DNA of 64,000 bases from Acidimicrobiales bacterium (lineage in GTDB: Bacteria > Actinomycetota > Acidimicrobiia > Acidimicrobiales > VFJN01), in NCBI GenBank assembly GCA_035697515.1, contig DASSCS010000111.1:4557-68556 (forward strand), read 5' to 3'. Within the stretch, counting starts at the first letter, position 1; each line of letters begins with the position of its first letter. The position numbers and the translations under genes were made by a program. Below are positions 6,700 to 57,597 of the stretch, piece after piece. The notes under the pieces are model-generated. The model was given only the letters and a program-made list of their open reading frames with translations, was not told where the DNA came from and ran no database searches.

Positions 6700-7521
6700 G
6701 TGAGCCTCATGCGCAACGCCCCCGGCGGCGGCAGCCGGCTGCGGGTCCGCCCGTGGCAGGCCGACGCCCGCATCGCGCACGTCGCCCCCGCCGCCGACTA
6801 CCTGGGCCCACTCACGCCGGCCGACGTCGAGCGGGCGGTCGACCACCTGTGTCGCCAGGGGTACCGCTCGGTCATCACCTCCGCGCTGCACCGGGCCGAC
6901 CGGCGCCCCTTCCTCGACGTGGGCTTCTGCGAGACCGAACGGCTGCACCTGCTGCTCCACCCGTTCGACGACATCCCGCCGGTGTCGCCGGTCCCGGGTG
7001 TCGACCTGCGGCGAGGCCGGCGCCGCGACCACGACGAGGTCCTCGACGTCGACAGGGCCGCGTTCTCGCCCTTCTGGCGGCTCGACCGGGCCGGGCTGGA
7101 CGAGGCGCTGACCGCCACGTCGACCGTGCACTTCCAGGTCGCCCGCAGCCACGACCGGGTCGTCGGCTACTCGGTGTGCGGGCGGGCCGGCCACCGCGGC
7201 TACGTGCAGCGGCTCGCCGTCGACCCGTCGGCCCAGGGCCGCGGCGTCGGCGCGGGCCTGCTGATCGACGGCCTGCGCTGGTTGCGGCGGTGGGGCGCCC
7301 GCGACGCGCTGGTCAACACCCAGGAGGGCAACGCCCGGTCGCTGCGCCTGTACCAGCGGTCGGGCTTCGTGCTGCAGCCCGAGGGGCTGGCCGTCCTCCA
7401 CCTCGACCTGACCCCGCACGCACCGGGCCAGGCCCCGGCGCCGGCCGGCACGGTCGCCGCCGGCAGCGGCGCGGCCGGCGCCCACCCGTCCCGGACCGGC
7501 CGGACCGAGGGCCGACCGTGA
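6700..7521 (+). CDS. GNAT family N-acetyltransferase
   Basis: Acetyl-CoA-binding motif QRLAVDPSAQGRGVGAGLL and NARSLRLYQRSGF. GTG start at 6700. The stop overlaps the next gene's start (GTGA at 7518-7521). Confidence 0.8.
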   Translation: MSLMRNAPGGGSRLRVRPWQADARIAHVAPAADYLGPLTPADVERAVDHLCRQGYRSVITSALHRADRRPFLDVGFCETERLHLLLHPFDDIPPVSPVPGVDLRRGRRRDHDEVLDVDRAAFSPFWRLDRAGLDEALTATSTVHFQVARSHDRVVGYSVCGRAGHRGYVQRLAVDPSAQGRGVGAGLLIDGLRWLRRWGARDALVNTQEGNARSLRLYQRSGFVLQPEGLAVLHLDLTPHAPGQAPAPAGTVAAGSGAAGAHPSRTGRTEGRP

Positions 7522-9815
7522 CCGGCCGGGCCACCAGCCGGGCGGGCCGGCTGGTGGGCGGGCTGGTGAGCGCGCTGGCCGCGCTGGTCATGGCGTTGGT
7601 GGTCGCGGGCGTCGGCCAGGCGGCGGCCCTGCCCCGGCCCGGCTCGGCCGGCGCCGGCGTCGCCTCGGCCGCCGTGGCGCCCACCATCGAGCTCGTCCGC
7701 CAGCCCGCATACGTGCGGCCCGGCGAGCCATACGGCGTCGAGGTCCGGGTGACCGATCCGCCGGCCGGCGCCCAGGTCGCCATGGTCGTGCACGACCGGC
7801 TCCAGTCGCGCCAGCAGTTCCGCACGACCCTCACCGGTGAGCTGGGCGCGGTCGAGCAGGCGATCGACCCGCAGCCCCTGGATGCATTGCCGCGCGGGCC
7901 CGCCGGGTCGGTGACGGTGGGCTTCACGCCCGGTTCCGGCGGTCCGGGCGGATCGGGGCGCGGGGTCTACCCGGTCGAGGTGCAGGTCCGTTCCCCGAAC
8001 GGGGAGGCGGTCGCCGGCCTCGTCACCTACCTCACGTTCCTCACCGACCGGACTCCAGAGTTCCCGCCGCTGCAGGTGGGCGTGCTCGTCGACATCGGCG
8101 CGCCCCCCTCGCTGCAGCCGGACGGCTCGACCGACCTGCCGGACGGCGCGCTCGACCGTGCCCGCGCGCGCGCCCGGCTGCTGACGCAGACCCAGGCGGC
8201 CGGCGTCCGCGTCACCCTCGCGCCGCAGCCCGAGACGATCGAGGCCCTGGCCGCCTCCGGCGGGGTCGGCGCGGCGACGGTCGATGAGCTCCGCGCCGCC
8301 AGTGTCGGACGGCGGGTGATCGCCCGGCCCTTCGTCGACGTCGACCTGGCGGCGCTGCAGCGCGCCGGCTTGCTCGGCGAGGCCAACCACCAGGCCGAGG
8401 ACGGCGCCGACGTCGTGCGCGAGCGGTTCAACACCGAGCCGGTCGGCGGTATCTGGCTCTCGGGCCCCACCCTCGGCGCCCCCGCCGCCCGGCTGGCGGT
8501 CGACCTGGGGTTCGATCGCGCCGTCGTCCCCCCGTCGGCGACGGCCGACGGCGCCGGCACGACGGGTGCCGAGGCGGAAGCGGAGACCGGCGGCGACCGT
8601 CCCCCGGTGCCCCTCACCCCCGTGCGCCTCGGTGCCGACGGGCCCCAGGTCATGGTGAGCGACCCCACGCTGGCCGCCCACCTGACCGGCCAGGACGGCA
8701 TGGTGGCCGCCCACCGGTTCATCGCCGAGCTGGCGATCACGTGGCTGGAGCGGCCCGCGGACACGCGGGCGGTCCTCGTCCACCTGCCGCCAGACGCGCC
8801 GCTCGACACCGACGTCGCCGCCGCCGCCCTCGGGGCGCTCGCCGACGGGCAGGCCGCGGAGGTGGTGCCCGTCGAGCACATCTTCCGCGACGTGCCCCCA
8901 CTCGATGATGCGCCGACCTCGATCGAGCCGGCCTCCCACGACGTCGACGACCGGCTCGGCTCGATCGCCGCCTCGCTCGACACCGCCCGCGCCCGCGTCA
9001 CCGGGGTGGGCTCGGCGCTCGACGACGTCCAGGTGGGCGCGTCGCTCGACCACTCGCTGCTGCTGGCCACCGGCACCGAGACCCCCGACGACCAGCGCGC
9101 CGCCTACGTCGACCGGGTGCTCGGCGCGGCCGGCGAGCTGGCCCAGGTGGTGAGGCTGCCCGACGAGTTCCGGATCACCCTCACGACCCGCTCGAGCACC
9201 ATCCCCGTCACGCTCACGAACCTGTCCGACGACGACCTGAGCGTGCGGGTCCGGCTGGACGGCGACCAGCTCGAGTTCCCGGACGGCGACCGCTTCGACC
9301 AGGTGCTGGCGCCCGGCACCACCCGCATCGAGGTGCCGGTGCGGGTCCGCACCTCGGGCGCGTTCAGCCTCGACGTCACGGTCACCAGCCCCGACGGGAC
9401 CCTCGTCCTCGACTCGACCACGTTCGACGTGCGCTCGACCGCCATCTCGGGGGTGGGCCTGGTGCTGTCGGTGGGCGCCGGCCTGTTCCTCGCCATCTGG
9501 TGGGCCCGGCACTGGCGCCGGACCCGCCGGTCGCGCCACCTGATGCCGCCCGGGTCGGTCGGTCCCGGCGGTCCCTCCGGGGACGGGGGCGAGGGCGGGG
9601 GCGGCAGCCCCGGCGGGGACGGGGCCGCGGGCGCCGATGGCGCCGGCTGGCCTGGCGGGCGCGACCGCCCCGGCCAGGGTGTCCCATCCCACACATCGGG
9701 CACCGCGGTCGGGGCCACCACCCCGCCATCGCGGCCCTCCGCCGCCCGCCCCGGCGGGGACGACGCCTCGTACCGTCCGGCCCACATGGCCCGGCAGCGC
9801 ACCCGCAGCGGGTAG
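7518..9815 (+). CDS. Large exported, membrane-anchored conserved protein (Rv3909/DUF6049-like by size, architecture and position)
   Basis: GTG 7518 overlaps the GNAT stop. There is an N-terminal signal/TM (LVGGLVSALAALVMALVVAGVG) and a C-terminal TM (GVGLVLSVGAGLFLAIWWA) followed by a P/G-rich tail. The track ORF upstream of 7518 (from 6612) is an R/P-rich artefact. The family name is inferred, not verified. Confidence 0.7.
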   Translation: MTGRATSRAGRLVGGLVSALAALVMALVVAGVGQAAALPRPGSAGAGVASAAVAPTIELVRQPAYVRPGEPYGVEVRVTDPPAGAQVAMVVHDRLQSRQQFRTTLTGELGAVEQAIDPQPLDALPRGPAGSVTVGFTPGSGGPGGSGRGVYPVEVQVRSPNGEAVAGLVTYLTFLTDRTPEFPPLQVGVLVDIGAPPSLQPDGSTDLPDGALDRARARARLLTQTQAAGVRVTLAPQPETIEALAASGGVGAATVDELRAASVGRRVIARPFVDVDLAALQRAGLLGEANHQAEDGADVVRERFNTEPVGGIWLSGPTLGAPAARLAVDLGFDRAVVPPSATADGAGTTGAEAEAETGGDRPPVPLTPVRLGADGPQVMVSDPTLAAHLTGQDGMVAAHRFIAELAITWLERPADTRAVLVHLPPDAPLDTDVAAAALGALADGQAAEVVPVEHIFRDVPPLDDAPTSIEPASHDVDDRLGSIAASLDTARARVTGVGSALDDVQVGASLDHSLLLATGTETPDDQRAAYVDRVLGAAGELAQVVRLPDEFRITLTTRSSTIPVTLTNLSDDDLSVRVRLDGDQLEFPDGDRFDQVLAPGTTRIEVPVRVRTSGAFSLDVTVTSPDGTLVLDSTTFDVRSTAISGVGLVLSVGAGLFLAIWWARHWRRTRRSRHLMPPGSVGPGGPSGDGGEGGGGSPGGDGAAGADGAGWPGGRDRPGQGVPSHTSGTAVGATTPPSRPSAARPGGDDASYRPAHMARQRTRSG

Positions 9816-14637: not shown

Positions 14638-15606
14638 GTGAGCCGCACCCGCAAGGTCATCATCATCGGCTCGGGCCCCGCAGGGCTCACCGCCGCCGTC
14701 TACGCGGCCCGGGCCAACCTCGAGCCGCTCCTGCTCGAAGGCGAGCCGTCGTCGACCAGCGACCAGCCAGGTGGGCAGCTCATGCTGACCACCGAGGTCG
14801 AGAACTACCCCGGGTTCCCCGAGGGCGTCATGGGCCCGGAGCTCATGACGCGGTTCCGCGAGCAGGCGGTGCGGTTCGGCACAGAGGTCCGCACGGAGAA
14901 GGCGTCCCGGGTCGACCTGTCGGCCCGGCCCTTCGGCGTGTGGGTCGGCGACCCCAACGCCGCCGAGCCCACCTACACGGCCGACGCCCTCATCATCTCG
15001 ACGGGCGCGCAGTCGCTCATGCTGGGCATCGAGCGCGAGTCCGAACTGATCGGCCACGGCGTGTCGACCTGCGCCACGTGCGACGGCTTCTTCTTCCGCG
15101 ACCACGACATCGCTGTGGTCGGCGGCGGCGACTCGGCACTCGAGGAGGCGATCTTCCTCACCAAGTTCGCCCGGTCGGTCACGATCGTCCACCGGCGTGA
15201 CGAGCTGCGGGCCTCGAAGATCATGCAGGAGCGGGCGTTCGCCAACGAGAAGATCCGGTTCCTGTGGAACCACACCGTCGACGCCGTGTCCGGCACGACG
15301 ACGCTCGAGAGCGTGACGGTGCGCAACGTGCTCACCGACGAGACGAGCGAGCTGCCGGTCACCGGCCTGTTCGTCGCGATCGGTCACAAGCCCAACACCG
15401 ACCTGTTCAAGGGGCAGCTCGAGATGGAGGAGTCCGGCTACCTCGTCACCGGCCTGGCCGGCGGCGCCACCACCACGAACGTCGAGGGCGTGTTCGCCTC
15501 CGGCGACGTCCAGGACCACAGGTACCGCCAGGCCATCACCGCCGCCGGATCGGGTTGCCAGGCCGCCATCGACGCCGAACGCTGGCTCGAGGCCCAGGGT
15601 TCCTGA
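14638..15606 (+). CDS. trxB: Thioredoxin-disulfide reductase
   Basis: FAD motif GSGPAGLTAA, redox-active CATCDG and NADPH motif GGGDSALEEA. Confidence 0.95.
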   Translation: MSRTRKVIIIGSGPAGLTAAVYAARANLEPLLLEGEPSSTSDQPGGQLMLTTEVENYPGFPEGVMGPELMTRFREQAVRFGTEVRTEKASRVDLSARPFGVWVGDPNAAEPTYTADALIISTGAQSLMLGIERESELIGHGVSTCATCDGFFFRDHDIAVVGGGDSALEEAIFLTKFARSVTIVHRRDELRASKIMQERAFANEKIRFLWNHTVDAVSGTTTLESVTVRNVLTDETSELPVTGLFVAIGHKPNTDLFKGQLEMEESGYLVTGLAGGATTTNVEGVFASGDVQDHRYRQAITAAGSGCQAAIDAERWLEAQGS

Positions 15607-16240: not shown

Positions 16241-17149
16241 TCAGGAGGCGTGGGTGGGCTGCTGGTCGCTGGGCGCCATCACCCGGTAGATGCGCTCCAG
16301 GTCTTCGAGGTCGGCGAACTCGATGACCACCCGGCCGCGCTTCGGTCCCATGTTGATCTTCACCCGGGTGTCGAGCTGTTCGGCCAGCAACTCCTCGAGC
16401 TCGAGCAGGCCCGGAGCGCGCAGCCTGCTACCCGGTGTCCCGCCCTCGGGCTCGGGGCGGGCGCCCGGGCCCTTCGGGGCGTTGTGCTGCCGGATCGCTT
16501 CCTCGGTCTCGCGCACCGTCATCCCCTCGGACACGATGCGGCGAGCAAGCGTCTCCTGGAGGGCTCGGTCCGGCGTGGCGAGCAGCGCCTTGGCGTGCCC
16601 TGCCGAGACCTGCCCGTCGGCGACCATGCGCTGGATCTGGGGCGGGAGCTGAAAGAGGCGCAGCAGGTTGGCGATGCCCGATCGGCTCTTGCCCACCCGG
16701 TGCGCGACGGCCTCCTGCGTCATGTTGAAATCCTCGATGAGCTGCTGGTAGGCAGCCGCCTCCTCGAGGGGGTTCAGATCGTCGCGGTGGAGGTTCTCGA
16801 CCAGGGCGTGCTGCAAGGTCAGCTCGTCGCTCACGTCCCGCACGATGATCGGCATGAACTGCATGCCCGCCCGCTTCGAGGCCCGCCAACGACGTTCGCC
16901 GGCGATGAGTGCGAACCGATCGGGGGCGACCTCGCGCACCAGGATCGGCTGCAGCACGCCCACCTCGCGGATCGATGCCGTCAGGGCGGCGAGCGACTCC
17001 TCGTCGAAATGGCTGCGGGGCTGGTACGGATTCGGCTCGATCTGCGTGATCGGCACCTCGCGGACCCCGGGCAGCGACGGCGGCCCGACGGTGACGTCCT
17101 GGGGGATGAGAGCGCCGAGGCCCTTACCCAGCCCGCTGCGCCGCTCCAC
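16241..17149 (-). CDS. parB: Chromosome partitioning protein ParB
   Basis: N-terminal GLGKGLGALIP, ParB box LIAGERRWRASKRAG and an HTH region. Lies downstream of parA. Confidence 0.95.
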   Translation of the reverse strand: MERRSGLGKGLGALIPQDVTVGPPSLPGVREVPITQIEPNPYQPRSHFDEESLAALTASIREVGVLQPILVREVAPDRFALIAGERRWRASKRAGMQFMPIIVRDVSDELTLQHALVENLHRDDLNPLEEAAAYQQLIEDFNMTQEAVAHRVGKSRSGIANLLRLFQLPPQIQRMVADGQVSAGHAKALLATPDRALQETLARRIVSEGMTVRETEEAIRQHNAPKGPGARPEPEGGTPGSRLRAPGLLELEELLAEQLDTRVKINMGPKRGRVVIEFADLEDLERIYRVMAPSDQQPTHAS

Positions 17150-18179
17150 CGCTCACCTCCAACGCCAGGCTCCGGTAGGCGATCGACCCCCGCGAGGTCG
17201 GATCGAACGTGATGATCGGCTGACCGAACGACGGGGCCTCGCTCAACCGCACCGTGCGGGGGACGATGCTGTTGCACACCTTGTCGCCGAAGTGATCGCG
17301 CACCTCGTGCACGACCTGGTCCGCGAGCTTGGTGCGGGCGTCGTACATGACCAGCACCATGGCGCTCAGCTCGAGGCGGGGGTTGAGATTGCGCTGTACG
17401 AGCTGAACGTTGCGCAGCAGCTGGCCGAGACCCTCGAGCGCGTAGTACTCGCACTGGATGGGCACGATGACCTCGCTGGCGGCGGCGAGGCCGTTGACGG
17501 TCAGCAGGCCCAACGAGGGCGGGCAGTCGATCAGGACGTACTCGTAGTCGTCGCGGATCGAGTCGAGCGCACGCCGTAGGCGCATCTCGCGGCTGAACGC
17601 GGGCACCAGTTCGATCTCCGCGCCGGCGAGGTCGAGCGCCGCCGGAGCGCAGAAGAGGTTCCGCACGGCTGTGGCCTCGACGCAGTCTTCGATCGGCAGG
17701 TCGTTGAGGATGACGTCATACATCGAGGCCTGAAGGTCCCGGATGTTGATGCCGAGGCCGGTGCTGGCGTTGCCTTGCGGATCGAGGTCGACCACCAGGA
17801 CCCGGTAGCCGAGCTCCGCCAGGCACGCGCCGAGGTTGACGGCCGTCGTGGTCTTGCCCACGCCGCCCTTCTGGTTGGCGATGGCGACCATGCGTGGAAG
17901 CGGGCGCTCGAACGGTGTGGGAGCGGAGTCGGGGGCAGGACGGGTGGCGTCGCCGGCCGGTTCGGGCTCGACGACTGCAGGAGAAGGCGTCATCACCTGT
18001 GCAGTCTCGTAGGGGTTCGGGGCTGTCTGATCGCCGCGCAGGTCCTCGAGCGCCGGAATGGCGTCGACCCCTGGCAGTGAGAAGCCGGATCTGCCCGAGG
18101 GCGCCCGGGCCTGAGTGGTGGCATCGGGCGTGCTCTCGGTCATCCGGCACATGTTTCCGGGCCGACGGAGTCGGGTCAA
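17124..18179 (-). CDS. parA: Chromosome partitioning ATPase ParA (Soj)
   Basis: Deviant Walker A KGGVGKTT preceded by an N-terminal extension of about 100 aa, typical of actinobacterial ParA. The true start may be one of the downstream Met codons (18152 or 18143). Confidence 0.9.
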   Translation of the reverse strand: MTRLRRPGNMCRMTESTPDATTQARAPSGRSGFSLPGVDAIPALEDLRGDQTAPNPYETAQVMTPSPAVVEPEPAGDATRPAPDSAPTPFERPLPRMVAIANQKGGVGKTTTAVNLGACLAELGYRVLVVDLDPQGNASTGLGINIRDLQASMYDVILNDLPIEDCVEATAVRNLFCAPAALDLAGAEIELVPAFSREMRLRRALDSIRDDYEYVLIDCPPSLGLLTVNGLAAASEVIVPIQCEYYALEGLGQLLRNVQLVQRNLNPRLELSAMVLVMYDARTKLADQVVHEVRDHFGDKVCNSIVPRTVRLSEAPSFGQPIITFDPTSRGSIAYRSLALEVSGGAAQRAG

Positions 18180-18200
18180 GCCCCGAACACGGCGCTGGGG

Positions 18201-18216
18201 TGTTCCACGTGGAACT
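18201..18216. other. parS: parS centromere site 1
   Basis: tGTTCCACGTGGAACt. The 14-bp palindromic core at 18202-18215 matches the ParB-binding consensus tGTTNCACGTGAAACa except for symmetric C/G changes. It lies 23 bp upstream of the longest parA start. Confidence 0.85.
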
Positions 18217-19161
18217 GCCAGCGTGCGAGCCCGACGCCGGCAGGATACATCGATAGACCCCGAGGCATGTCAAAACCACCCTCCGCGCGAAGCCAGGGGC
18301 TCTGTGCCCCCGACCGTCTGGAGTCACGCCAAGGGTTTCGGGCAGAAACCGTGCCACGGCAGGCGTTGCCGCTTGGACCGTAGGGGGACCCAGCCACGAA
18401 CTCGCGCCATCTGACTGCCGCCGAGGCCATTACGCGCACATGGGGCGATCGCGTGCGGCCAACGGCCGGTGCAGACGAGAGGTAGGAGCACTCAGTCAGC
18501 ACACGACCAACAGATCTTCGGCCTGTCGGACCCGGTGCCAGCTGTACGCGAGCGCCGCTTGCCTCCTCGACTGGGCCGGATCCGGCGGCGGGCTCCGGGT
18601 TGCGGCAAGGGAGTGACGGCTCCCGGTTGGGTGTGTCGACGTCTGACGCACCGCTTGGCGCTCGGCTACACGGCCGACGCTCCGCCGTGGTCAGAGTGCA
18701 CGTCATGGAGCGCGATGGTGCGACGAACCGTGTGCGGGAACGGGCTCAACATTCCGAAGAGCGGCACTCGCTCGCCGCGGAAGCGGTTCCGACGCCCCAG
18801 CGACGTCGACGGATGTGGACCACCTCGCTGCGCCCCACGCCGAGGTGCGGAGCATGGGGCCAGAGTCCGACGCCCAGGTGCTGTACGACGCGGCCCGAGA
18901 GAATCCGTCCCGATGCGCCGGCGCGAACACCAGCAGGTGGCTCGTGTGTGGTTCGCGATGGCTGAGGCCGTGGCGGCCGCCGACGGCGACGCGAGAGCGG
19001 CGTACCCGACGAACCGTGCCGCCACCAGGAGGTTTGAGACCGCGGGCGGCATGCAGAAGGTCAGCTTGGGCCAGCATCGTGCACCACAGCCACCAACCTC
19101 CGGGCGATCTCCTGCGACGCTGCAACGCACGCCCCCAGGGTCGCGGTCCTGGTTTTGAGCG

Positions 19162-19177
19162 TGTTCCACGTGGAACA
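19162..19177. other. parS: parS centromere site 2 (perfect 16-bp palindrome)
   Basis: TGTTCCACGTGGAACA. Confidence 0.85.
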
Positions 19178-19748
19178 TCGGTCGCACCAAGCGTCCTCGA
19201 GTCGCCGCAAGGGGGCCTCCGTCGCTGCATACGAGTTCAACTCACGGGCGGGTTCCCCTGGGCCAACCAGGTATGCATCAGGCGCGGACCCACTTCGTAG
19301 CAGGCGACAGCCAGGTGGCGCCGCCCTGAGCAGGGCTGCGGGCGCCCCTCCACGCCACCAGGCGATCGGCCGTATCAGTTCCATCCTTCGAGGGTGCGTA
19401 GCCGCCGACTGCTGCTCGCACCCCGGGCGCCGGGTGCCGCGCCCGGGGGTGGGCGGCGGGCCGACGAGCCTGCGACCACATGGACAAGGGGCCCGCCAGG
19501 CCGAGCCTGGCGGGCCCCGGCCGTCACCCACTCCACCCGATCTCGCCCCACCGCCCATCGCGGCTGAGGGGCACACTCCGACCTGGGACTCACGCCCTCC
19601 CAAGCTCCGCCTCGCGTGGTCGAGTCCGCGCCACGGAGTCACACGCACACGTGTCAGTTGCGAGCCCTTCGAGCGCCACGCTGTCGGGCTCGAAGCCGCC
19701 AGTGATCAGCCTGCGCCGCCGCCTTGTGCGACGCGGCCATGGCCTGCA

Positions 19749-19764
19749 CGTTCCACGTGGAACA
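19749..19764. other. parS: parS centromere site 3
   Basis: cGTTCCACGTGGAACA, with the identical 14-bp core. Confidence 0.85.
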
Positions 19765-20140
19765 TGTGCATCCGTCGGCAGTAGCCCGATGGCGTCCCGC
19801 CGCAGTGTTGGCCGCCGCCCGCCTGTGCCCGACACACCAGCGTTGGGCATCAGCCGGCGTGGGAAGCCACAGTCCTCGCCGGGCAACCATGCACGGCACC
19901 GCTTTGTGGCGCGAAGCCCGCGAACCCCGCCGTCACGCCACCGCCCACACGATGCGTTCCTCGAGCCCGCGGCGCTCCTGCCCGACCGCACGTCTCCGGT
20001 ACGGGCCGCTTCGCCTCCCGGTGGGCAGTCCGTTTGGCTCACAAGGAACGGCGGCTGCTGCTGCACATTCGTTGGCGATGCTGGAGCGACCACCGCGGCA
20101 GGCCGTGCGGGGCTGGTCAGCGCCCGCCGAGGGTTGCGGA

Positions 20141-20156
20141 TGTTCCACGTGGAACG
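20141..20156. other. parS: parS centromere site 4
   Basis: TGTTCCACGTGGAACg, with the identical 14-bp core. Confidence 0.85.
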
Positions 20157-20396
20157 CCGGAGCCACGCTCCGACGTGGCGCCATAGGCCCTGGTCAGAGC
20201 CACCGGAGTCGCCGCAGACGGCCCCCACTGACGGTACGCCAAACGGCCTCCGTTCCGACCGCCGGGGCAACGAGTGTCCGCCGCCAAGCTGGGGCCGCGC
20301 ACCACCTCGCTCCGCTCGCTTGCAGACAACACGGGATCCCGCCACCCGACCTGCGCCGTGCGCCGAGTGTCGGCGCCCGTCTGTCATCATCGCCAC

Positions 20397-21044
20397 ATGG
20401 CGTATCGCCAGCCACCGTCCGGGCCGCCAGACGAACGGGAGCACGAGCTCGCCGACTTGGCCGACGCCGATCTCCATCGGCAGGTTGCCGGGCTCGAGCG
20501 TGCCACTCGGAGCAACCCGTGCGTCGACGCCATCCTGGCTCGCGCCGGGGCACTCGGCCTACCCGGGTGGTATCTCGGTGCCGGCTGCATCACGAACACC
20601 GTCTGGAACCTTCTGCACGGCTTCGATCCCCGGACAGGCGTCAACGACTACGACCTCGTGTACTTCGACGACGCGGATCTCACGGCGGATGGGGAGCGCT
20701 CGATCGAGGCAGGGGCGCAGGCGCTCTTCGCCGACCTGGGCGTGCGACTCGACGTCACCAACGAAGCTCGCGTGCACCTCTGGTACGAGCGCAGGTTCGG
20801 CCGGGCCCTGGCGCCGTACCGCTCGACCGAGCACGCGATCAGCACCTGGCCCACCACCGCGTCGAGCATCGGCGTACGTCGCGACGCAGGCGGCTTCTCG
20901 GTCTGCGCGCCATTCGGGTTGCGGGACCTGTTTGCGATGGTCGTCCGCGCCAACAAGACGGTCGTGACGCGAGCCGTCTACGAGGCGAAGGTCGAGCGCT
21001 GGTCGACTGTCTGGCCGCGACTCACCGTCGTTCCCTGGGACTGA
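20397..21044 (+). CDS. Nucleotidyltransferase family protein (resembles the PF06042/DUF925 type), unknown function
   Basis: ATG 20397 (MAYRQPPS). The sequence GWYLGAGCITNTVWNLLHG...NDYDLVYFD...RLDVTNEARVHLWYE resembles this uncharacterised NTase family. It is convergent with rsmG. The family call is from memory only. Confidence 0.6.
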   Translation: MAYRQPPSGPPDEREHELADLADADLHRQVAGLERATRSNPCVDAILARAGALGLPGWYLGAGCITNTVWNLLHGFDPRTGVNDYDLVYFDDADLTADGERSIEAGAQALFADLGVRLDVTNEARVHLWYERRFGRALAPYRSTEHAISTWPTTASSIGVRRDAGGFSVCAPFGLRDLFAMVVRANKTVVTRAVYEAKVERWSTVWPRLTVVPWD

Positions 21045-21058
21045 CGCACGGCCGGCGG

Positions 21059-21751
21059 TCAGAACAGCGGCCGTTTGGCGGGAACGCCGGTGCGGCGCGG
21101 GAACTGCGCCGGGCATGTGCGTTCGAGCACAAGCGATCGGTAGCGGTAAGGGCCGGACCACACCCGCTCGGCGCGGAGGCCGACGAGCGCCAGGCCCGCC
21201 GCCGGCCACCGGGCCGCGGCGCCCGACCCCGCGCCAGCCTCGTCCGGGGCCTCACCGTCGCCCGCCGGCGGCTCGCTGACGATCAGCCGACCCCCGACGA
21301 CGAGGAACGGCGCACCGCACTCGGCGGTGACCGGTGGGGGACCGAAGCCCCGGGCCACGACGACATCGAACCGGGCCCGCAGGTCCTCCCGGCGCCCGGC
21401 GTCCTCGGCCCGAGCCCGCACCACCCGGACTCGGTCCTCCCACCCCAGTGACGACACGCTCTCGGTGAGGAACGCACAGCGGCGCTCAGCCGCGTCGAGC
21501 AGCACGACCTCGCTGGTCGGCCAGCAGGCGGCCAGCACGAGGCCCGGCACCCCGCCCCCGCTCCCCAGGTCGAGCAGGCGGCCGGGAGGCCCGGGCGCTC
21601 CCGCGGAGAACCCCCGGGCGTGCCCCACCTGGACGCGGACGGAGCCGGGCCCGAGGAACCCCAGGCTCCGGCTCCGCCGAAGAACCGCGATCAGCGGCGC
21701 GTCGTCGGTCGACGCCTCATCGGCGGGCCCACCGTTCGGCGTCGCGGTCAT
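21059..21751 (-). CDS. rsmG: 16S rRNA (guanine527-N7)-methyltransferase RsmG (GidB)
   Basis: SAM motif LLDLGSGGGVPGLVLA. ATG 21751 lies just downstream of the jag stop (21759). The longer track ORF overlaps jag and was rejected. Confidence 0.9.
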   Translation of the reverse strand: MTATPNGGPADEASTDDAPLIAVLRRSRSLGFLGPGSVRVQVGHARGFSAGAPGPPGRLLDLGSGGGVPGLVLAACWPTSEVVLLDAAERRCAFLTESVSSLGWEDRVRVVRARAEDAGRREDLRARFDVVVARGFGPPPVTAECGAPFLVVGGRLIVSEPPAGDGEAPDEAGAGSGAAARWPAAGLALVGLRAERVWSGPYRYRSLVLERTCPAQFPRRTGVPAKRPLF

Positions 21752-21758
21752 GCCCCGT

Positions 21759-22754
21759 TCAGGCCGGGCGGATGACCACCCGGCGGGCGTCGTCCTCGCC
21801 CTCCGACACCGTCGCGACGCCCTCGATGTCGTTGACGACGTCGTGCACCACCTTGCGGTCGGCCGAGCCCATGGGGTCGAGCGCCTTGGCGACACCCGAC
21901 TCCTTGACGCTCTCGGCCACGCTGGTGGCGAACCGCTCGAGCGCCTCCTTGCGCCGGGCCCGGTAGCCGGCGACGTCGACCCGCACGCGGGCGTGCGACT
22001 GGCCGACGAAGCGACGCTGCACCATGCTGCGCACGAGCTCCTGCACCGCCTGGAGGGTCACGCCCTTCTGCCCGACGAGCAGGCCCAGCTCACTGCCGTC
22101 AACGGTCGCCTCCAACGCCTGGTCCTCGGCGACGGCGACCGTCACGGTGGCATCGGAACGGCCGAACGCCGTCACGAGGTCGGTGAGGAACTCCTCGACC
22201 GCCACCTTCTGGCCCTCGAGGTCGAGCTCGCCGACCTCGGGGCGATCCGTCGACTGCGCACTCTCGCTCACCGTTGCTCCCTCTGCCGTGCGGGGCGACC
22301 GGCTGCGGCGCCTCCGCCTGCTGTTGGACGATCCGGCCTGGCCGTCTCCCGACGCCGGCTCACGGTCATCCGGCTCCGTGCCCTCCGGTCCGGACATGCC
22401 CGACCCGAGTGCCCCGGTCGAGGCCCGGGCGCCGTCGTTGCCACGCGCGTCACCGTCCCGGCCACCGGCCTTGACGCGGTCGCGCCCGGCCTGGCCCTTC
22501 GGCGCGCGGACGCGATCACCGTCCCGGCCCCGCCGGTCACCCCGACGCCGCTCGCGCCGCTCGGCCTTGGGCCGGGGGGCCGTGGGGCGAACACGCGCGC
22601 GTACCTGGGCCTCGGCGCGCAACCGGCCGAACAGGCCCTTCTGCGCGTCCTGGACGACCTCGACCTCGGCGTCCTGCTCGTCCACTCCCAACTGGTCGAG
22701 CGCGTGCTCGGTCGCTTCCTCGATCGTGCGGCCTGACGTGACAACCCATTCCAC
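21759..22754 (-). CDS. jag: Jag/KhpB-type RNA-binding protein (Jag_N, KH and R3H domains) with a long R/G/D-rich linker
   Basis: The Jag N-domain is MEWVVTSGRTIEEATEHALDQLGV. The C-terminal KH/R3H part includes DRKVVHDVVNDIEGVATVSEGE. It holds the conserved position after yidC. Confidence 0.85.
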   Translation of the reverse strand: MEWVVTSGRTIEEATEHALDQLGVDEQDAEVEVVQDAQKGLFGRLRAEAQVRARVRPTAPRPKAERRERRRGDRRGRDGDRVRAPKGQAGRDRVKAGGRDGDARGNDGARASTGALGSGMSGPEGTEPDDREPASGDGQAGSSNSRRRRRSRSPRTAEGATVSESAQSTDRPEVGELDLEGQKVAVEEFLTDLVTAFGRSDATVTVAVAEDQALEATVDGSELGLLVGQKGVTLQAVQELVRSMVQRRFVGQSHARVRVDVAGYRARRKEALERFATSVAESVKESGVAKALDPMGSADRKVVHDVVNDIEGVATVSEGEDDARRVVIRPA

Positions 22755-24082: not shown

Positions 24083-24615
24083 TGGGCCGCCCCACCGGTG
24101 CCGGACGGTGTGCCGGGAGCGGACCCGCTCGCGGCCGTGATGGCCCGGCCGAGGTCGTCGCGCAGCTCGCGGTAGCTGCGGCGGGCGGCGTCGGGCCCGA
24201 CGGCCACGAGGTAGGCGCCGGTCGGCAGACCGCCGGTGCTGATGTCGAGCTCGCGCACCGCCGCCCGCAGGCGGCGCCGGACCTTGTTGCGCACCACGGC
24301 CGTGCCGACCTTGCGGCCGATCGAGTAGGCGACCCGCACCTCGCGGGGGCCGGGGAGGTGGGTCACCGTCATCGGCCCGCGCCGCGCCCGGCGTCCCTCA
24401 CGCCGCAGCGCGTCGAACGTCGCACGGTCGCCGAGCCGCCCGATCAGGCCGAGAGGCGCGCGCGGCCCCTCTGGCGCCGGTTGCGGACGATCGCCCGCCC
24501 GGCTCGGGTGCTCATGCGGTGGCGGAATCCGTGGCGGGTGGCCCGCCTCCGCTTGTTGGGCTGGAATGTGCGCTTCACCTTGTGCCTCCTCGGCCACGCG
24601 GCCTCCTCGCGTCAT
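24079..24615 (-). CDS. rnpA: Ribonuclease P protein component RnpA (start uncertain)
   Basis: The conserved core is [21 protein letters not shown]...[18 protein letters not shown]. The only canonical in-frame starts (GTG 24597, ATG 24615, ATG 24657) lie upstream of rpmH. Otherwise a CTG (24447) or ATC (24444) start at the rpmH stop would be needed. Confidence 0.75.
24444..24578 (-). CDS. rpmH: 50S ribosomal protein L34
   Basis: Hand translation of the reverse complement gives [57 protein letters not shown] lies 6 nt upstream. It is too short for the ORF track. Confidence 0.95.
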
Positions 24616-24818
24616 GAGCGGGGCCGGCGGCGGGAACCGGAACGATCGTGCGACCAACTCGACGCGCGGCGTTGGAGCACCCGCGTCGGTGCCGGGACAA
24701 CGCTAGAGGGCGAAACCCCGGCGACGCCAACCTGGGCACCCGGGACGAGCGCCGACCGTGCCCACACCATCACACCGCGCTCACGCTCGGCAAGCACCGG
24801 TCGCAGGCCCGGGCACGG

Positions 24819-25042
24819 TCGTCCACATCCAGCCCCCAGGGCGGCATCCCCACCCTGTGGACGACCCTGGTCGGCGGCAGGCGCCGGTGCTACGTTGCGT
24901 CGACCCCCGCCCCTCGGACGGGGTGCCAGAGCCGGGGAGGGCCCAACATCGACCGGCGGGTCGACGGCTCCCAGAACCCGTCGGCTACCTGGCGTCAAGT
25001 GCTTGTGCCGTCATCCACAAGTGTGGATGGTGTTGTGGATGA
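24819..25042. promoter_or_regulatory. DnaA-box cluster upstream of dnaA (dnaA promoter/autoregulation region or part of oriC)
   Basis: Five 9-mers with a TCCACA core: TCGTCCACA 24819-24827, its inverted copy 24856-24864, TCATCCACA 25011-25019, TGTGGATGG 25022-25030 and TGTGGATGA 25034-25042. Confidence 0.75.
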
Positions 25043-25073
25043 CACGCACGATCCCGGAGGACTGTGTGACGTG

Positions 25074-26564
25074 ATGAGCGATGCGCACCGCTTGTGGACG
25101 ATGTGCGCCACCCTGCTGCGTGCGCAGGTGTCCGACCCGGTGTGGCACACGGCCTTCGAGGGCGTGCGCGCGGTCGACTACGACGGCCACGCGCTGACGC
25201 TCGGCGTCACCAGCCCCCTCGCCAAGGAACGCATCGAGGGCCGCTACCTGGGGCTCGTCCGCGACGCGCTCACCGAGGCGGGCGCCCCCCACGTCGAGCT
25301 GCTGCTGCGCATCGAGCCCCCGGAACCACCGTCGCTGTGGACCGTGCCGACGCCCGTGCCCGGTGCGCCCGACGTCTCCCGCACCCCGCCCGCCCTCGAC
25401 GGCGGCCACCCGGGGAGCATCCACCTCGCCGCGCCGGGCCAGCCGGGCCAGCCGACGACAGCCACGGGGAGCGCTGGTGGCGCTGGCCGCGGCCGGGGCG
25501 AGCCCAACGGCACCGGGGCCGGCCCACCACCGGCCGGCGACATCGAGCTGAACCCCCGCTACACGTTCGAGAACTTCGTCATCGGCGGCTCCAACCGCTT
25601 CGCCCACGCGGCCGCCCAGTCGGTGGCCGAGATGCCCGCGCGCCGCTGGAACCCGCTGTTCATCTACGGCGACGCCGGCCTGGGCAAGACCCACCTGCTG
25701 CAGGCCATCGCCAGCTACGTCAACGACAACTACCCCGCCTACCGGGTGCGCTACGTCACCTCCGAGACGTTCCTCAACGAGTTCATCGAGTCGATGCAGT
25801 CGGGCAGCCGCGACGGGTTCAAGCGCCGCTACCGCGACATCGACGTGCTGCTCGTCGACGACGTCCAGTTCTTCCAGGGCAAGCAGGAGACGCTGGAGGA
25901 GTTCTTCCACACCTTCAACCACCTGCACCAGACGAACCGGCAGATCGTGCTGTCGTCCGACCGGGCGCCCGACCAGATCGGCTTCGAGGACCGCATGCGC
26001 AGCCGGTTCCAGCAGGGTCTGCTCACCGACATCCAGCCGCCCGAGCTCGAGACGCGGCTGGCCATCCTGCGCAAGAAGGCCGAGCTCGAGACCGCCCGCA
26101 TCCCGCCCGAGGTGCTCGAGTTCATCGCCACCAACATAAAGGACAACATCCGCGTGCTCGAGGGAGCGCTCATCAGGGTGTCGGCGTTCGCCAGCCTCAC
26201 CCACGAGCCCATCACGGTCGACCGCGCCACCCAGGTGCTGGCTGACCTGTTGAGCGAGAACCAGCCCCGGCCGATCACGCCCCGGCTCATCCTCGACGAG
26301 GCCTCGGCCCAGTTCGGGTTCACCGTCGACGACCTGCAGAGCAAGCACCGCCAGCGTCCCCTCGTCACCGCCCGGCAGATCGCCATGTATGTCATGCGCG
26401 AGCTGACCGAGCTGTCGTACCCCAACATCGCCCGCGAGTTCGGCGGCCGCGACCACACCACGGTCATCCACGCGGTCGAGAAGATCGGCGCCCTCATGTC
26501 GAAGGACCGCCAGATCTACGACCAGGTCACCCGCCTCATGAAAGCGGTGCGCCAGGGTGACTGA
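25074..26564 (+). CDS. dnaA: Chromosomal replication initiator protein DnaA
   Basis: Walker A GDAGLGKTHL, Walker B LLVDDVQF and a C-terminal DNA-binding domain (ITPRLILDEASAQFG...RDHTTVIHA). The start is ATG 25074 (or GTG 25071) after GGAGG. The track ORF's upstream extension covers the DnaA boxes. Confidence 0.95.
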   Translation: MSDAHRLWTMCATLLRAQVSDPVWHTAFEGVRAVDYDGHALTLGVTSPLAKERIEGRYLGLVRDALTEAGAPHVELLLRIEPPEPPSLWTVPTPVPGAPDVSRTPPALDGGHPGSIHLAAPGQPGQPTTATGSAGGAGRGRGEPNGTGAGPPPAGDIELNPRYTFENFVIGGSNRFAHAAAQSVAEMPARRWNPLFIYGDAGLGKTHLLQAIASYVNDNYPAYRVRYVTSETFLNEFIESMQSGSRDGFKRRYRDIDVLLVDDVQFFQGKQETLEEFFHTFNHLHQTNRQIVLSSDRAPDQIGFEDRMRSRFQQGLLTDIQPPELETRLAILRKKAELETARIPPEVLEFIATNIKDNIRVLEGALIRVSAFASLTHEPITVDRATQVLADLLSENQPRPITPRLILDEASAQFGFTVDDLQSKHRQRPLVTARQIAMYVMRELTELSYPNIAREFGGRDHTTVIHAVEKIGALMSKDRQIYDQVTRLMKAVRQGD

Positions 26565-36267: not shown

Positions 36268-36341
<74 letters not shown>

Positions 36342-57520: not shown

Positions 57521-57597
57521 GGGGACGTAGCTCAGTTGGCTAGAGCACCTGCTTTGCAAGCAGGGGGTCGTGGGTTCGAGTCCCATCGTCTCCACCA
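57521..57597 (+). tRNA. tRNA-Ala (anticodon TGC), CCA encoded
   Basis: Acceptor GGGGACG/CGTCTCC with the G3:U70 identity pair, anticodon loop TTTGCAA and T-arm GTGGGTTCGAGTCCCAT, followed by ACCA. Confidence 0.95.

Follow-up and report, generated by a model that had tools for sequence, protein, structure and literature searches.

What does a stretch of more than 2 kb that carries four parS-like palindromes and no recognizable gene do directly upstream of a chromosomal parA? We examined this question in a 64,000-nucleotide (64-kb) stretch of DNA from an uncultured Acidimicrobiia lineage, referred to here as the window. Judging from the sequence and its comparison with relatives, the region is very probably the chromosome's origin-proximal centromere, a parS array beside parAB in which the DNA between the sites is tolerated filler. 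The element is of a familiar type, but laid out over an unusually long gene-free stretch.

Chromosomal parS is a 14-16 bp inverted repeat with the consensus tGTTNCACGTGAAACa. The palindrome GTTCCACGTGGAAC occurs in the 64-kb window in four exact copies (18202-18215, 19163-19176, 19750-19763 and 20142-20155), all inside 1.95 kb, with no further copy at up to two mismatches, and a scan of the same 64 kb for the 16-mer TGTTCCACGTGGAACA at up to three mismatches returned the same four sites and no fifth. Only 0.28 copies of the 14-mer and 0.13 of the 16-mer would be expected, and for neither did any of 100 window shuffles reach four. The initial annotation, which listed these four palindromes as the only ones in 64 kb and one of them as a perfect 16-mer, therefore agrees with the exact scan, the sole perfect 16-mer TGTTCCACGTGGAACA being that at 19162-19177. 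The 14-bp core fits GTTNCACGTGNAAC, and the 16-mers show 0-1 mismatch to TGTTCCACGTGGAACA. Each specified position of the parS consensus is matched except position 12 of the 16-mer, where the textbook A is replaced by a G that mirrors the C permitted at position 5. The combinations CG, TA, CA and TG at positions 5 and 12 are all present in relatives, and the consensus for the clade can be written (G)(A/G)T-GTTCCACGTGGAAC-A(T/C)(C). Half-sites of the forms GTTCCAC and GTTTCAC are both bound by the ParBs of several species (PMC7022226).

The genes around the array (Table 1) follow the order trxB-trxA-parB-parA-[spacer]-NTP_transf_6-rsmG-jag-yidC-dnaA, and rsmG normally lies directly upstream of parA, an order kept in most of 80 relatives. 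ParB contains the arginine patch GERRWRA, within LIAGERRWRA, a type of motif whose role in CTP binding has been described (PMC7022226). Five DnaA boxes lie at 24819-25101, overlapping a gap without coding signal (24454-25067), with two more near 26.6-26.8 kb. The parS array is 4.7-6.9 kb from the DnaA-box cluster and dnaA, and so about 5-7 kb from the likely origin. Together with the Pfam assignments of parA and parB, this bears out the annotated position of the sites beside parAB and near the origin. The array combines an inverted repeat, clustering, linkage to parAB and the origin, a cognate ParB with a helix-turn-helix (HTH) and arginine patch, and conservation of the sites among relatives. 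The spacer was also considered as oriC itself and rejected on DnaA-box counts, as it holds one weak, 1-mismatch box against the five at 24819-25101.

Table 1. Features of the parAB-rsmG region and the nearby DnaA-box cluster (window coordinates).
Feature	Position	Strand	Details
parB	16241..17149	-	ParB_N 1e-34, HTH_ParB 3e-38, ParB_C 1e-9 (Pfam)
parA, AAA_31/CbiA ParA ATPase	17124..18179	-	Pfam; ~95-residue N-terminal extension
Non-coding spacer	18180..20396	.	2,217 bp, four parS sites
Conserved non-coding block beside parA	18180..18290	-	site 1 + GTATCCTGCC / TTTTGACA
parS site 1, TGTTCCACGTGGAACT	18201..18216	.	promoter-proximal; 23 bp upstream of TTGACC/TTG at 18179
parS site 2, TGTTCCACGTGGAACA	19162..19177	.	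perfect 16-mer
Hairpin	19488..19518	.	perfect 14-bp G+C-rich stem, 3-nt loop; -39 to -43 kcal/mol, z about -4.5 to -4.9
parS site 3, CGTTCCACGTGGAACA	19749..19764	.	
parS site 4, TGTTCCACGTGGAACG	20141..20156	.	start 255 bp upstream of nucleotidyltransferase ATG
Inverted copy of rsmG 3' end	20237..20265	+	26/29 nt; partner 21052-21080
PF06042 (NTP_transf_6) nucleotidyltransferase	20397..21044	+	Pfam 3e-52; start ATG 20397
rsmG (gidB)	21059..21895	-	Pfam
DnaA-box cluster upstream of dnaA	24819..25101	.	likely oriC or dnaA promoter region

The edges of the spacer can be given with different degrees of certainty. At the distal end the next credible gene is that for the PF06042 nucleotidyltransferase. 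At the parA end the TTG at 18179 may be part of a -35-like TTGACC, in which case the true start of parA may be ATG 18152 or 18143; the JGI start in the orthologue L098 is M10, that is, ATG 18152. The parA reading frame survives the indels in an alignment with L001 and L002, and the arrangement TTGACC-17 nt-AAACAT-7 nt-ATG before parA is conserved at the DNA level. If translation begins at ATG 18143, TTGACC and AAACAT would serve as -35 and -10 of a leaderless parA transcript. These promoter-like elements lie below the threshold of a consensus promoter scan and were recognized from their conservation only. Site 1 lies 23-60 bp upstream of parA whichever start applies, with 36 nt from the start of the site to the parA TTG, as is also the case in L001, L002, L095 and L098. 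From 18180 to ~18290 the window is 80-90% identical to L095 and L098, after which identity drops abruptly to random level, and this block probably comprises the promoter and 5' region of parAB.

Several lines of evidence agree with the earlier description of the stretch as gene-free. The GC frame plot is flat from ~18050 to 20400 (all three phases at 0.65-0.79, against 0.85-0.99 in the flanking genes), and the longest uncalled gap of a GC3-based gene caller falls here (17892-20429; 2,538 bp, against 904 bp for the runner-up), 2.8 times any other non-coding stretch of the window. Six-frame Pfam searches of the spacer gave nothing at E<=1 except one sub-threshold SPOR match (13.6 bits), and tblastx of the spacer against relatives returned only the low-complexity noise of G+C-rich translations. 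A consensus promoter and terminator scan found nothing, and Rfam gave no match at the gathering score. The recurring FHVE, STWN and PRGT peptides are the parS palindrome in translation, as had been proposed for the FHVEH-type peptides. A fall in G+C was likewise real, at 69-71% for the spacer against ~73-74% for the window, albeit smaller than hand counts of individual lines (62% and 68% against 78%) had implied. The spacer shows neither the codon periodicity, domain homology or 3-periodic substitution expected of a gene or pseudogene, nor the known family or conserved sequence or structure expected of a structured RNA.

Comparison with relatives indicates what has been kept. The NTP_transf_6 gene is absent from all 80 GTDB parA loci sampled and found only in L095-L099; this distribution marks it as an insertion specific to the clade, situated between rsmG and the parS spacer. 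The relatives that bear it represent four lineages, and both full-length spacers among them (1.95-2.2 kb) carry four sites: L095 and L098 share the window's layout, L096 and L097 show whichever parts their contigs cover, and in one lineage besides L095 and L098 the spacer spans at least 2.0 kb. The distance of the first site from parA is constant, and so is that of the last site from the nucleotidyltransferase gene, the position of site 4 (250-263 bp upstream of the latter) being kept in L095, L096, L097 and L098. For site 3, each of the five clade sequences shows a site at the aligned position, with one core substitution in the L097 copy, and the counterpart of site 2 in L096 has one core mismatch (GTTCCACGTGCAAC); these single core mismatches in L096 and L097 imply that not every site is indispensable. 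Alignment of the parA-upstream region thus finds conservation only in the parS sites, ~110 bp beside parA and a shorter stretch beside the nucleotidyltransferase gene, and not in the interior. The parS sites are under purifying selection, and the long spacer has probably been passed down vertically in the clade.

The interior itself changes about as fast as third codon positions do and has many indels. Against the close relative L097, 9.1% of spacer sites differ, with 17 indel events in 823 nt, compared with 7.9% of third positions and zero indels in the nucleotidyltransferase gene. Spacer substitutions in this pair show no 3-periodicity (30/19/26 by phase, p=0.29), whereas those in the adjacent gene do (6/5/17, p=0.009). 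Permissive global nucleotide alignments give ~71-73% identity even for unalignable pairs, so shuffle-controlled scores and column identities were used instead for interior comparisons. By these measures the interior has ~53% identity per alignment column with L096, and its global alignment score with L095 equals that of shuffled sequence (z=1.7); it is conserved with neither L095 nor L098. The suggestion from L095 that the interior evolves faster than synonymous sites was rejected, since the rates are comparable against L097; the L095 interior is unalignable because indels and substitutions erase alignability at larger distance. The interior (~18290-20130, sites aside) is best read as unconstrained filler, and of the options first put forward, decayed DNA in which only the parS sites are maintained fits best, given that the sites and the parA and nucleotidyltransferase flanks are conserved and the rest is neutral-like.

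The same slot is used throughout the class. Across 80 Acidimicrobiia loci, 145 parS sites lie within 3 kb upstream of parA and six elsewhere, a ~126-fold difference in density, and that interval contains one or more sites in 67 of the 80 loci. In sister lineages (L086-L089 and L092), whose ParA is 80-84% identical, rsmG-parA spacers of only ~240-260 bp hold 4-6 sites, the sites being 35-140 bp apart and some only 35-38 bp; spacer length is evidently not needed for centromere function. At the other extreme, in 12 of 67 loci parA is separated from rsmG or jag by 1 kb or more of DNA without periodicity. One of these belongs to a cultured organism, Aquihabitans sp. G128 (NZ_CP077604.1), whose ~2.6 kb spacer has a pair of parS sites at either end and gave no Pfam match. 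Our literature search on parS in Acidimicrobiia returned nothing relevant.

These observations, together with established ParABS biology, enable us to propose a model for the locus. CTP-bound ParB dimers would be loaded at the individual sites, form closed clamps there and move by sliding onto the flanking DNA, and four loading points 0.4-1 kb apart would generate one continuous ParB zone that covers the spacer and extends into parAB, the nucleotidyltransferase gene and rsmG. ParA, and probably SMC too, would act on this zone, resulting in segregation of the origin region. Site 1 immediately precedes the promoter-like elements of parA, and ParB occupancy there probably feeds back on parAB expression. 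In this model, the ~2 kb of inter-site DNA would be tolerated filler as opposed to a functional module, and the nucleotidyltransferase gene would have been acquired by the ancestor of the clade, at the rsmG end. Several observations sit less easily with this model. Bacterial deletion bias is expected to shrink neutral DNA, yet spacers of 1.95-2.2 kb have survived among lineages 16-36% diverged at four-fold degenerate sites; the window and L095 spacers match in length within 8 bp despite their unalignable interiors; and long gene-free spacers between rsmG and parA recur independently in the class, which hints at a lineage tendency that filler leaves unexplained. Individual sites can also erode, as the core mismatches in L096 and L097 show.

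It is possible, although we rather doubt it, that the spacer is what decay has left of genes or mobile DNA formerly situated between rsmG and parA, possibly brought in together with the nucleotidyltransferase gene, and that only parS has been under selection. This is a claim about origin and is compatible with the centromere reading. The clade-specific insertion of the nucleotidyltransferase gene and the apparently neutral evolution of the interior are consistent with it, as is the 29-nt inverted copy of the rsmG 3' end that, with its partner, brackets that gene and indicates that the locus has been rearranged. The copy is partly recognizable in L097 and L096 and more weakly in L098. A larger decayed inverted rsmG copy in the spacer was considered and rejected, as only this 29-nt 3'-end relic is detectable. 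Against such a descent, the spacer contains no protein-family relic in six frames, no tandem or terminal repeats, and no similarity to plasmids or, beyond the rsmG relic, to other parts of the window. The four sites extend across the whole 2 kb, a spacing that a single insertion cannot explain, and outgroups that lack the nucleotidyltransferase gene (L001, L002 and L084) already have spacers of 1.3-1.5 kb. A mobile-element origin was rejected for want of plasmid matches, terminal repeats or repeat copies elsewhere in the window.

We consider it unlikely that the gene-free length is itself selected, the ~2 kb serving as a runway for ParB loading and sliding or as an insulator, with length and site number kept while the sequence drifts. 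Under this explanation ParB clamps and RNA polymerase would be kept apart and neighboring genes shielded from silencing. That the window, L095 and L098 have all retained four sites and a spacer of 1.95-2.2 kb despite unalignable interiors argues for it, as do the near-identical distance from site 1 to site 4 in the window and L095 (1,940 and 1,937 bp), the standing of the gap as the window's largest non-coding stretch, and the long spacers upstream of parA in other Acidimicrobiia, Aquihabitans sp. G128 among them. Set against these are the sister lineages of similar ParA identity with compact arrays, and L098, whose spacer is ~270 bp shorter than that of the window, so that length is only loosely fixed. 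The comparison covers just a few lineages, so the 8-bp match in length could be chance. Furthermore, a single parS site suffices for normal segregation in Corynebacterium glutamicum (PMC7083940). The wider claim that a subset of Acidimicrobiia has such a kilobase-scale gene-free runway, with the window's clade and Aquihabitans sp. G128 as independent cases, is equally improbable in our view; its purposes may include separating ParB clamps from transcription or tuning the size of the partition complex. The dedicated platform for ParB suggested by the initial annotation is a conjecture, weakened by the compact sister arrays and kept alive by the persistent 1.95-2.2 kb and the recurrence in the class.

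The initial annotation had also raised a long non-coding RNA, and we regard an unrecognized RNA of this kind, or a small or atypical protein, as very improbable. A strong hairpin at 19488-19518, the single instance in the window, might suggest one, as might the few short conserved islands (for example CCCTGGTCAG at 20188-20197) and two JGI-called ORFs without Pfam matches in the L099 assembly. However, the same sequence is uncalled in L098, in whose orthologous 1,977 bp JGI calls no gene; the hairpin has no counterpart in L096 by alignment; Rfam gives no match to the spacer even at E<=1; and GC3 periodicity is absent, substitutions lack 3-periodicity, indels are frequent and the interior cannot be aligned between lineages of the same layout. 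That the palindromes are operators of another DNA-binding protein, or the spacer a replication origin, with no ParB centromere present, is barely tenable: other dimeric regulators might in principle recognize CACGTG-centered palindromes and the region is near dnaA, but the motif fits the parS consensus save for a G at position 12 that is seen in many relatives' sites, it tracks parA in 67 of 80 loci, and the DnaA boxes cluster at 24.8-25.1 kb.

The centromere reading places the array among known systems. In other bacteria parS sites are often found within or next to genes and dispersed across tens of kilobases, and Livny et al. (2007) reportedly surveyed origin-proximal chromosomal clusters of them. 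Like other chromosomal ParABS centromeres, that of the window has several redundant sites of the same 16-bp palindrome family, clustered within a few kilobases of parAB and the origin, and a cognate ParB with an HTH and a GERRxRA CTP patch. It is unlike them in that both half-sites read GTTCCAC, giving full symmetry with G for A at position 12, and in that all sites detected in the window share one gene-free 2.2 kb interval. C. glutamicum offers another actinobacterial cluster of 16-bp sites: its parS1-10 are identical, have ParB propagation zones around groups of sites, and range over 35 kb of DNA that also contains genes, at a distance of 73 kb from oriC (PMC7083940), whereas the window's four sites occupy a single non-coding interval upstream of parA, ~5 kb from the DnaA-box cluster. 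Nine of those ten sites are intergenic (PMC7083940), so intergenic position alone is not unusual, and the premise that parS usually lies inside or beside genes needs softening. In Pseudomonas aeruginosa the intergenic parS3 and parS4 repress adjacent promoters (reviewed in PMC7022226), an example of parS in a promoter region where ParB binding can modulate a neighboring gene; in the window the promoter belongs to parAB, and its position would mean autoregulation. The compact sister arrays share the motif, the rsmG-parA slot and a count of 4-6 sites, and differ from the window in spacing (35-140 bp within ~250 bp, against 392-961 bp between neighbors in 2.2 kb) and in lacking the nucleotidyltransferase gene that the window has at the rsmG end.

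For an uncultured Acidimicrobiia lineage, the locus offers a clean centromere validated by comparison with relatives, within a class where parS is concentrated almost wholly in the rsmG-parA slot. Its sole unusual aspect is the amount of unconstrained, gene-free DNA between the sites, which is ~2 kb in several species and recurs in the class. The cultured Aquihabitans sp. G128, with its similar spacer, makes the question of length testable. If the length is selected, it would bear on the balance of ParB clamp sliding, transcription and partition-complex size; if it is not, the locus would be a tidy case of neutral DNA sheltered between selected sites.

Every sequence-level criterion that we could test identifies the feature as a chromosomal parS centromere, and the parS identity proposed in the initial annotation is borne out by motif count, linkage to parAB, origin proximity and conservation. 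A search of the whole window recovered exactly four copies of the 14-mer GTTCCACGTGGAAC, confirming both the palindromes first reported and the lack of others, with nothing further at up to two mismatches; chance predicts 0.28 matches, and none of 100 dinucleotide-preserving shuffles reached four. The 16-mer TGTTCCACGTGGAACA, allowing three mismatches, returned only the same four places in the window, its sole perfect copy lying at 19162-19177. Likewise, the FHVE, STWN and PRGT peptides that recur in the spacer ORFs are the palindrome in translation, as had been supposed for the first of them. The adjacent ParB contains the ParB_N, HTH_ParB and ParB_C domains together with the arginine patch LIAGERRWRA; the equivalent GERRFRA motif of Spo0J makes up the CTP catalytic center (PMC7022226).

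Positions of genes and other features in the window
Feature	Coordinates	Strand	Basis
trxB	14638-15606	plus	Pfam
parB	16241-17149	minus	Pfam
parA	17124-18179	minus	Pfam
parS sites 1 to 4	starts 18202, 19163, 19750, 20142		exact 14-mer match
PF06042 (NTP_transf_6) nucleotidyltransferase	20397-21044	plus	Pfam
rsmG	21059-21895	minus	Pfam
jag, yidC	beyond rsmG	both minus	Pfam
dnaA	beyond jag and yidC		Pfam gene order
tRNA genes (the only Rfam gathering-score matches)	36268-36341, 57521-57594		Rfam

A ParA scan of GTDB species representatives yielded 80 loci with a top ParA identity of 83%, nearly all carrying the label of Acidimicrobiia or of one of its subordinate taxa. Across these loci, 145 GTTNCACGTGNAAC sites fall within 3 kb upstream of parA versus 6 in the other 1.16 Mb, making them 126 times denser near parA, and 67 of the 80 carry at least one site in this interval. 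Across the class, then, the centromere sits in the rsmG-parA slot. Core bases 4 and 11 vary among relatives' sites (CG, TA, CA and TG combinations all occur), which makes the symmetric GTTCCAC half-site an ordinary variant; GTTCCAC and GTTTCAC half-sites are both bound by ParBs of several species (PMC7022226). In sister lineages the motif is packed very differently from the window, in tight arrays whose sites start at regular intervals of 35-38 bp (L092 526-671; L087 115-187; L086 477-512). The closest described actinobacterial case is Corynebacterium glutamicum, where nine of ten identical sites are intergenic and the cluster extends across 35 kb of gene-containing DNA (PMC7083940), whereas in the window all sites sit within a single gene-free 2.2 kb interval immediately upstream of parA.

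The claim that this stretch is gene-free holds. Between ~18050 and 20400 the GC frame plot is flat, with third positions in the flanking genes reaching 0.85-0.99, and a GC3-based gene caller left its longest gap in the window at 17892-20429 (2,538 bp; the runner-up is 904 bp). Six-frame translation of the spacer with stops masked matched no Pfam family at E<=1 save one sub-threshold SPOR match (13.6 bits), and neither the gathering score nor an E<=1 cutoff produced an Rfam match to the spacer. It contains no tandem repeats, nor any long repeats except the parS sites themselves, and its G+C content is 69-71% compared with ~73-74% for the window. A hairpin at 19488-19518, with a perfect 14-bp G+C-rich stem and a 3-nt loop (-39 to -43 kcal/mol), is unique in the window, lacks a T-tract and is not conserved in the clade member L096. 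The spacer is not oriC, as it holds just one weak DnaA box; the cluster of boxes, at 24819-25101, precedes the dnaA portion that shows coding signal, and two more boxes lie near 26.6-26.8 kb. The distance to oriC is ~5-7 kb. The listed dnaA ORF (24648-26564) acquires coding signal only at ~25068, and the region upstream of this signal (24454-25101) contains five DnaA boxes, TCGTCCACA three times and TCATCCACA twice, so the upstream part is probably oriC or the dnaA promoter, not coding sequence.

Contigs from the window's own clade were located by a metagenome scan with the ParA N-terminus, a nucleotidyltransferase orthologue search and contig look-ups. L095 (nucleotidyltransferase 80.5% identical) has four parS sites in a 2,225 bp spacer; L098 and L099 (81%) have four in 1,977 bp, counted from the parA start as called, and in them the gene order trxB-trxA-parB-parA-spacer-nucleotidyltransferase-rsmG-jag is complete. 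Three sites are seen in L096 (85%), whose contig ends within a spacer of at least 1,996 bp, and the 820 bp of spacer covered in L097 (95%) include sites 3 and 4. The L098 and L096 spacers received no JGI gene calls; that of L099 received two overlapping ORFs lacking Pfam matches, which points to spurious calls because the L098 sequence is identical. In both the window and L095, 36 nt separate the start of site 1 from the parA TTG, and L098 has a site in the same place; the nucleotidyltransferase ATG lies 250-263 nt beyond the start of site 4. The middle two sites change position with indels. A further element, CCCTGGTCAG (20188-20197, ~35 nt beyond site 4), is identical across the five clade sequences amid drifted surroundings and may be a nucleotidyltransferase promoter element or a protein-binding site.

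Against its closest relative, L097, the window's spacer differs at 9.1% of sites, with 17 indel events in 823 nt and no 3-periodicity of substitutions (30/19/26 by phase, p=0.29). In the adjacent gene 4.3% of sites differ, without indels, and third positions account for 17 of the 28 changes (7.9% of third positions, p=0.009). L096 can still be aligned across the spacer (~53% identical columns). With L095 and L098 only ~110 bp beside parA (80-90% identity), a short stretch by the nucleotidyltransferase start and the parS sites align; the interior global alignment score against L095 is no different from shuffles (z=1.7), and four-fold degenerate sites in flanking genes are still 64-84% identical. 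From this pattern, the interior is orthologous and vertically inherited, with its sequence unconstrained, which is strong evidence against any conserved product, whether RNA or protein; the suggestion of an unrecognized long non-coding RNA thus finds no support, either here or in Rfam. Over these distances the parS cores remain perfect except for two single-base lapses, at L096 886 (GTTCCACGTGCAAC) and in L097 site 3, aligned to window 19751 (GCTCCACGTGGAAC), indicating purifying selection with some redundancy, the lapses being evidence of erosion within a redundant array. The option that only the parS sites are maintained is accordingly supported, as sites and short flanks align and the interior drifts.

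The nucleotidyltransferase gene seems to have been inserted in the ancestor of the clade, being absent from all 80 GTDB loci in a protein-query search and bracketed by an inverted copy of the rsmG 3' end. The inverted repeat (20237-20265/21052-21080, 26 of 29 nt) has as its right arm the last rsmG codons, the stop and 8 nt downstream, and as its left arm a relic copy, suggesting arrival via rearrangement at the rsmG 3' end.

Does spacer length matter? Most likely the spacer is tolerated filler between selected sites, a reading we place first on weighing compact relatives, the shorter L098 spacer and single-site sufficiency against the persistence of length. A gene-free runway under selection is a live minority reading, and the "dedicated platform" initially proposed is unproven. 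Lineages with complete spacers have kept four sites and a length of 1.95-2.2 kb, and sites 1 and 4 lie 1,940 bp apart in the window versus 1,937 bp in L095. In 12 of 67 class members, non-periodic DNA of 1 kb or more separates parA from rsmG or jag, and the complete genome of Aquihabitans sp. G128 has ~2.6 kb there, bounded by a parS pair at each end and free of Pfam matches. However, relatives of similar ParA identity fit 4-6 sites within ~250 bp, some at the tight spacing described, the L098 spacer is ~270 bp shorter than the window's, and C. glutamicum segregates normally with one parS site (PMC7083940). The Aquihabitans gene-free rsmG-parA spacer (NZ_CP077604.1, locus L008) carries its pairs at 7422/7485 and 9649/9720, with a 99-nt unit repeated four times (95% matches) mid-spacer at 8361-8755.

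Beside site 1, reading toward parA, ~22 bp are followed by TTGACC, 17 nt, AAACAT, 7 nt and ATG (18143-18179, minus strand), near-invariant in the DNA of the window, L095, L098 and the outgroup loci L001 and L002. Judged by this conservation, TTGACC/AAACAT resembles a promoter, with parA starting leaderless at 18143, and the parA "TTG start codon" may really be a -35 element; a generic promoter scan did not flag the arrangement, and the JGI parA start in L098 corresponds to the window ATG at 18152. The ~95-residue ParA N-terminal extension (17892-18179) lacks the strong GC3 bias of the remaining gene and is still conserved as protein in L001 and L002, with in-frame indels. Given this promoter-like arrangement, ParB on site 1 may autoregulate parAB.

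The sequence itself shows four selected parS sites, canonical ParB and ParA, origin proximity and a non-coding, neutrally drifting interior. By analogy with established ParABS biology, CTP-bound ParB would load at each parS, close its clamp and slide, and the four loading points would generate a single ParB zone across the spacer and its neighbors, which ParA and SMC would then use.
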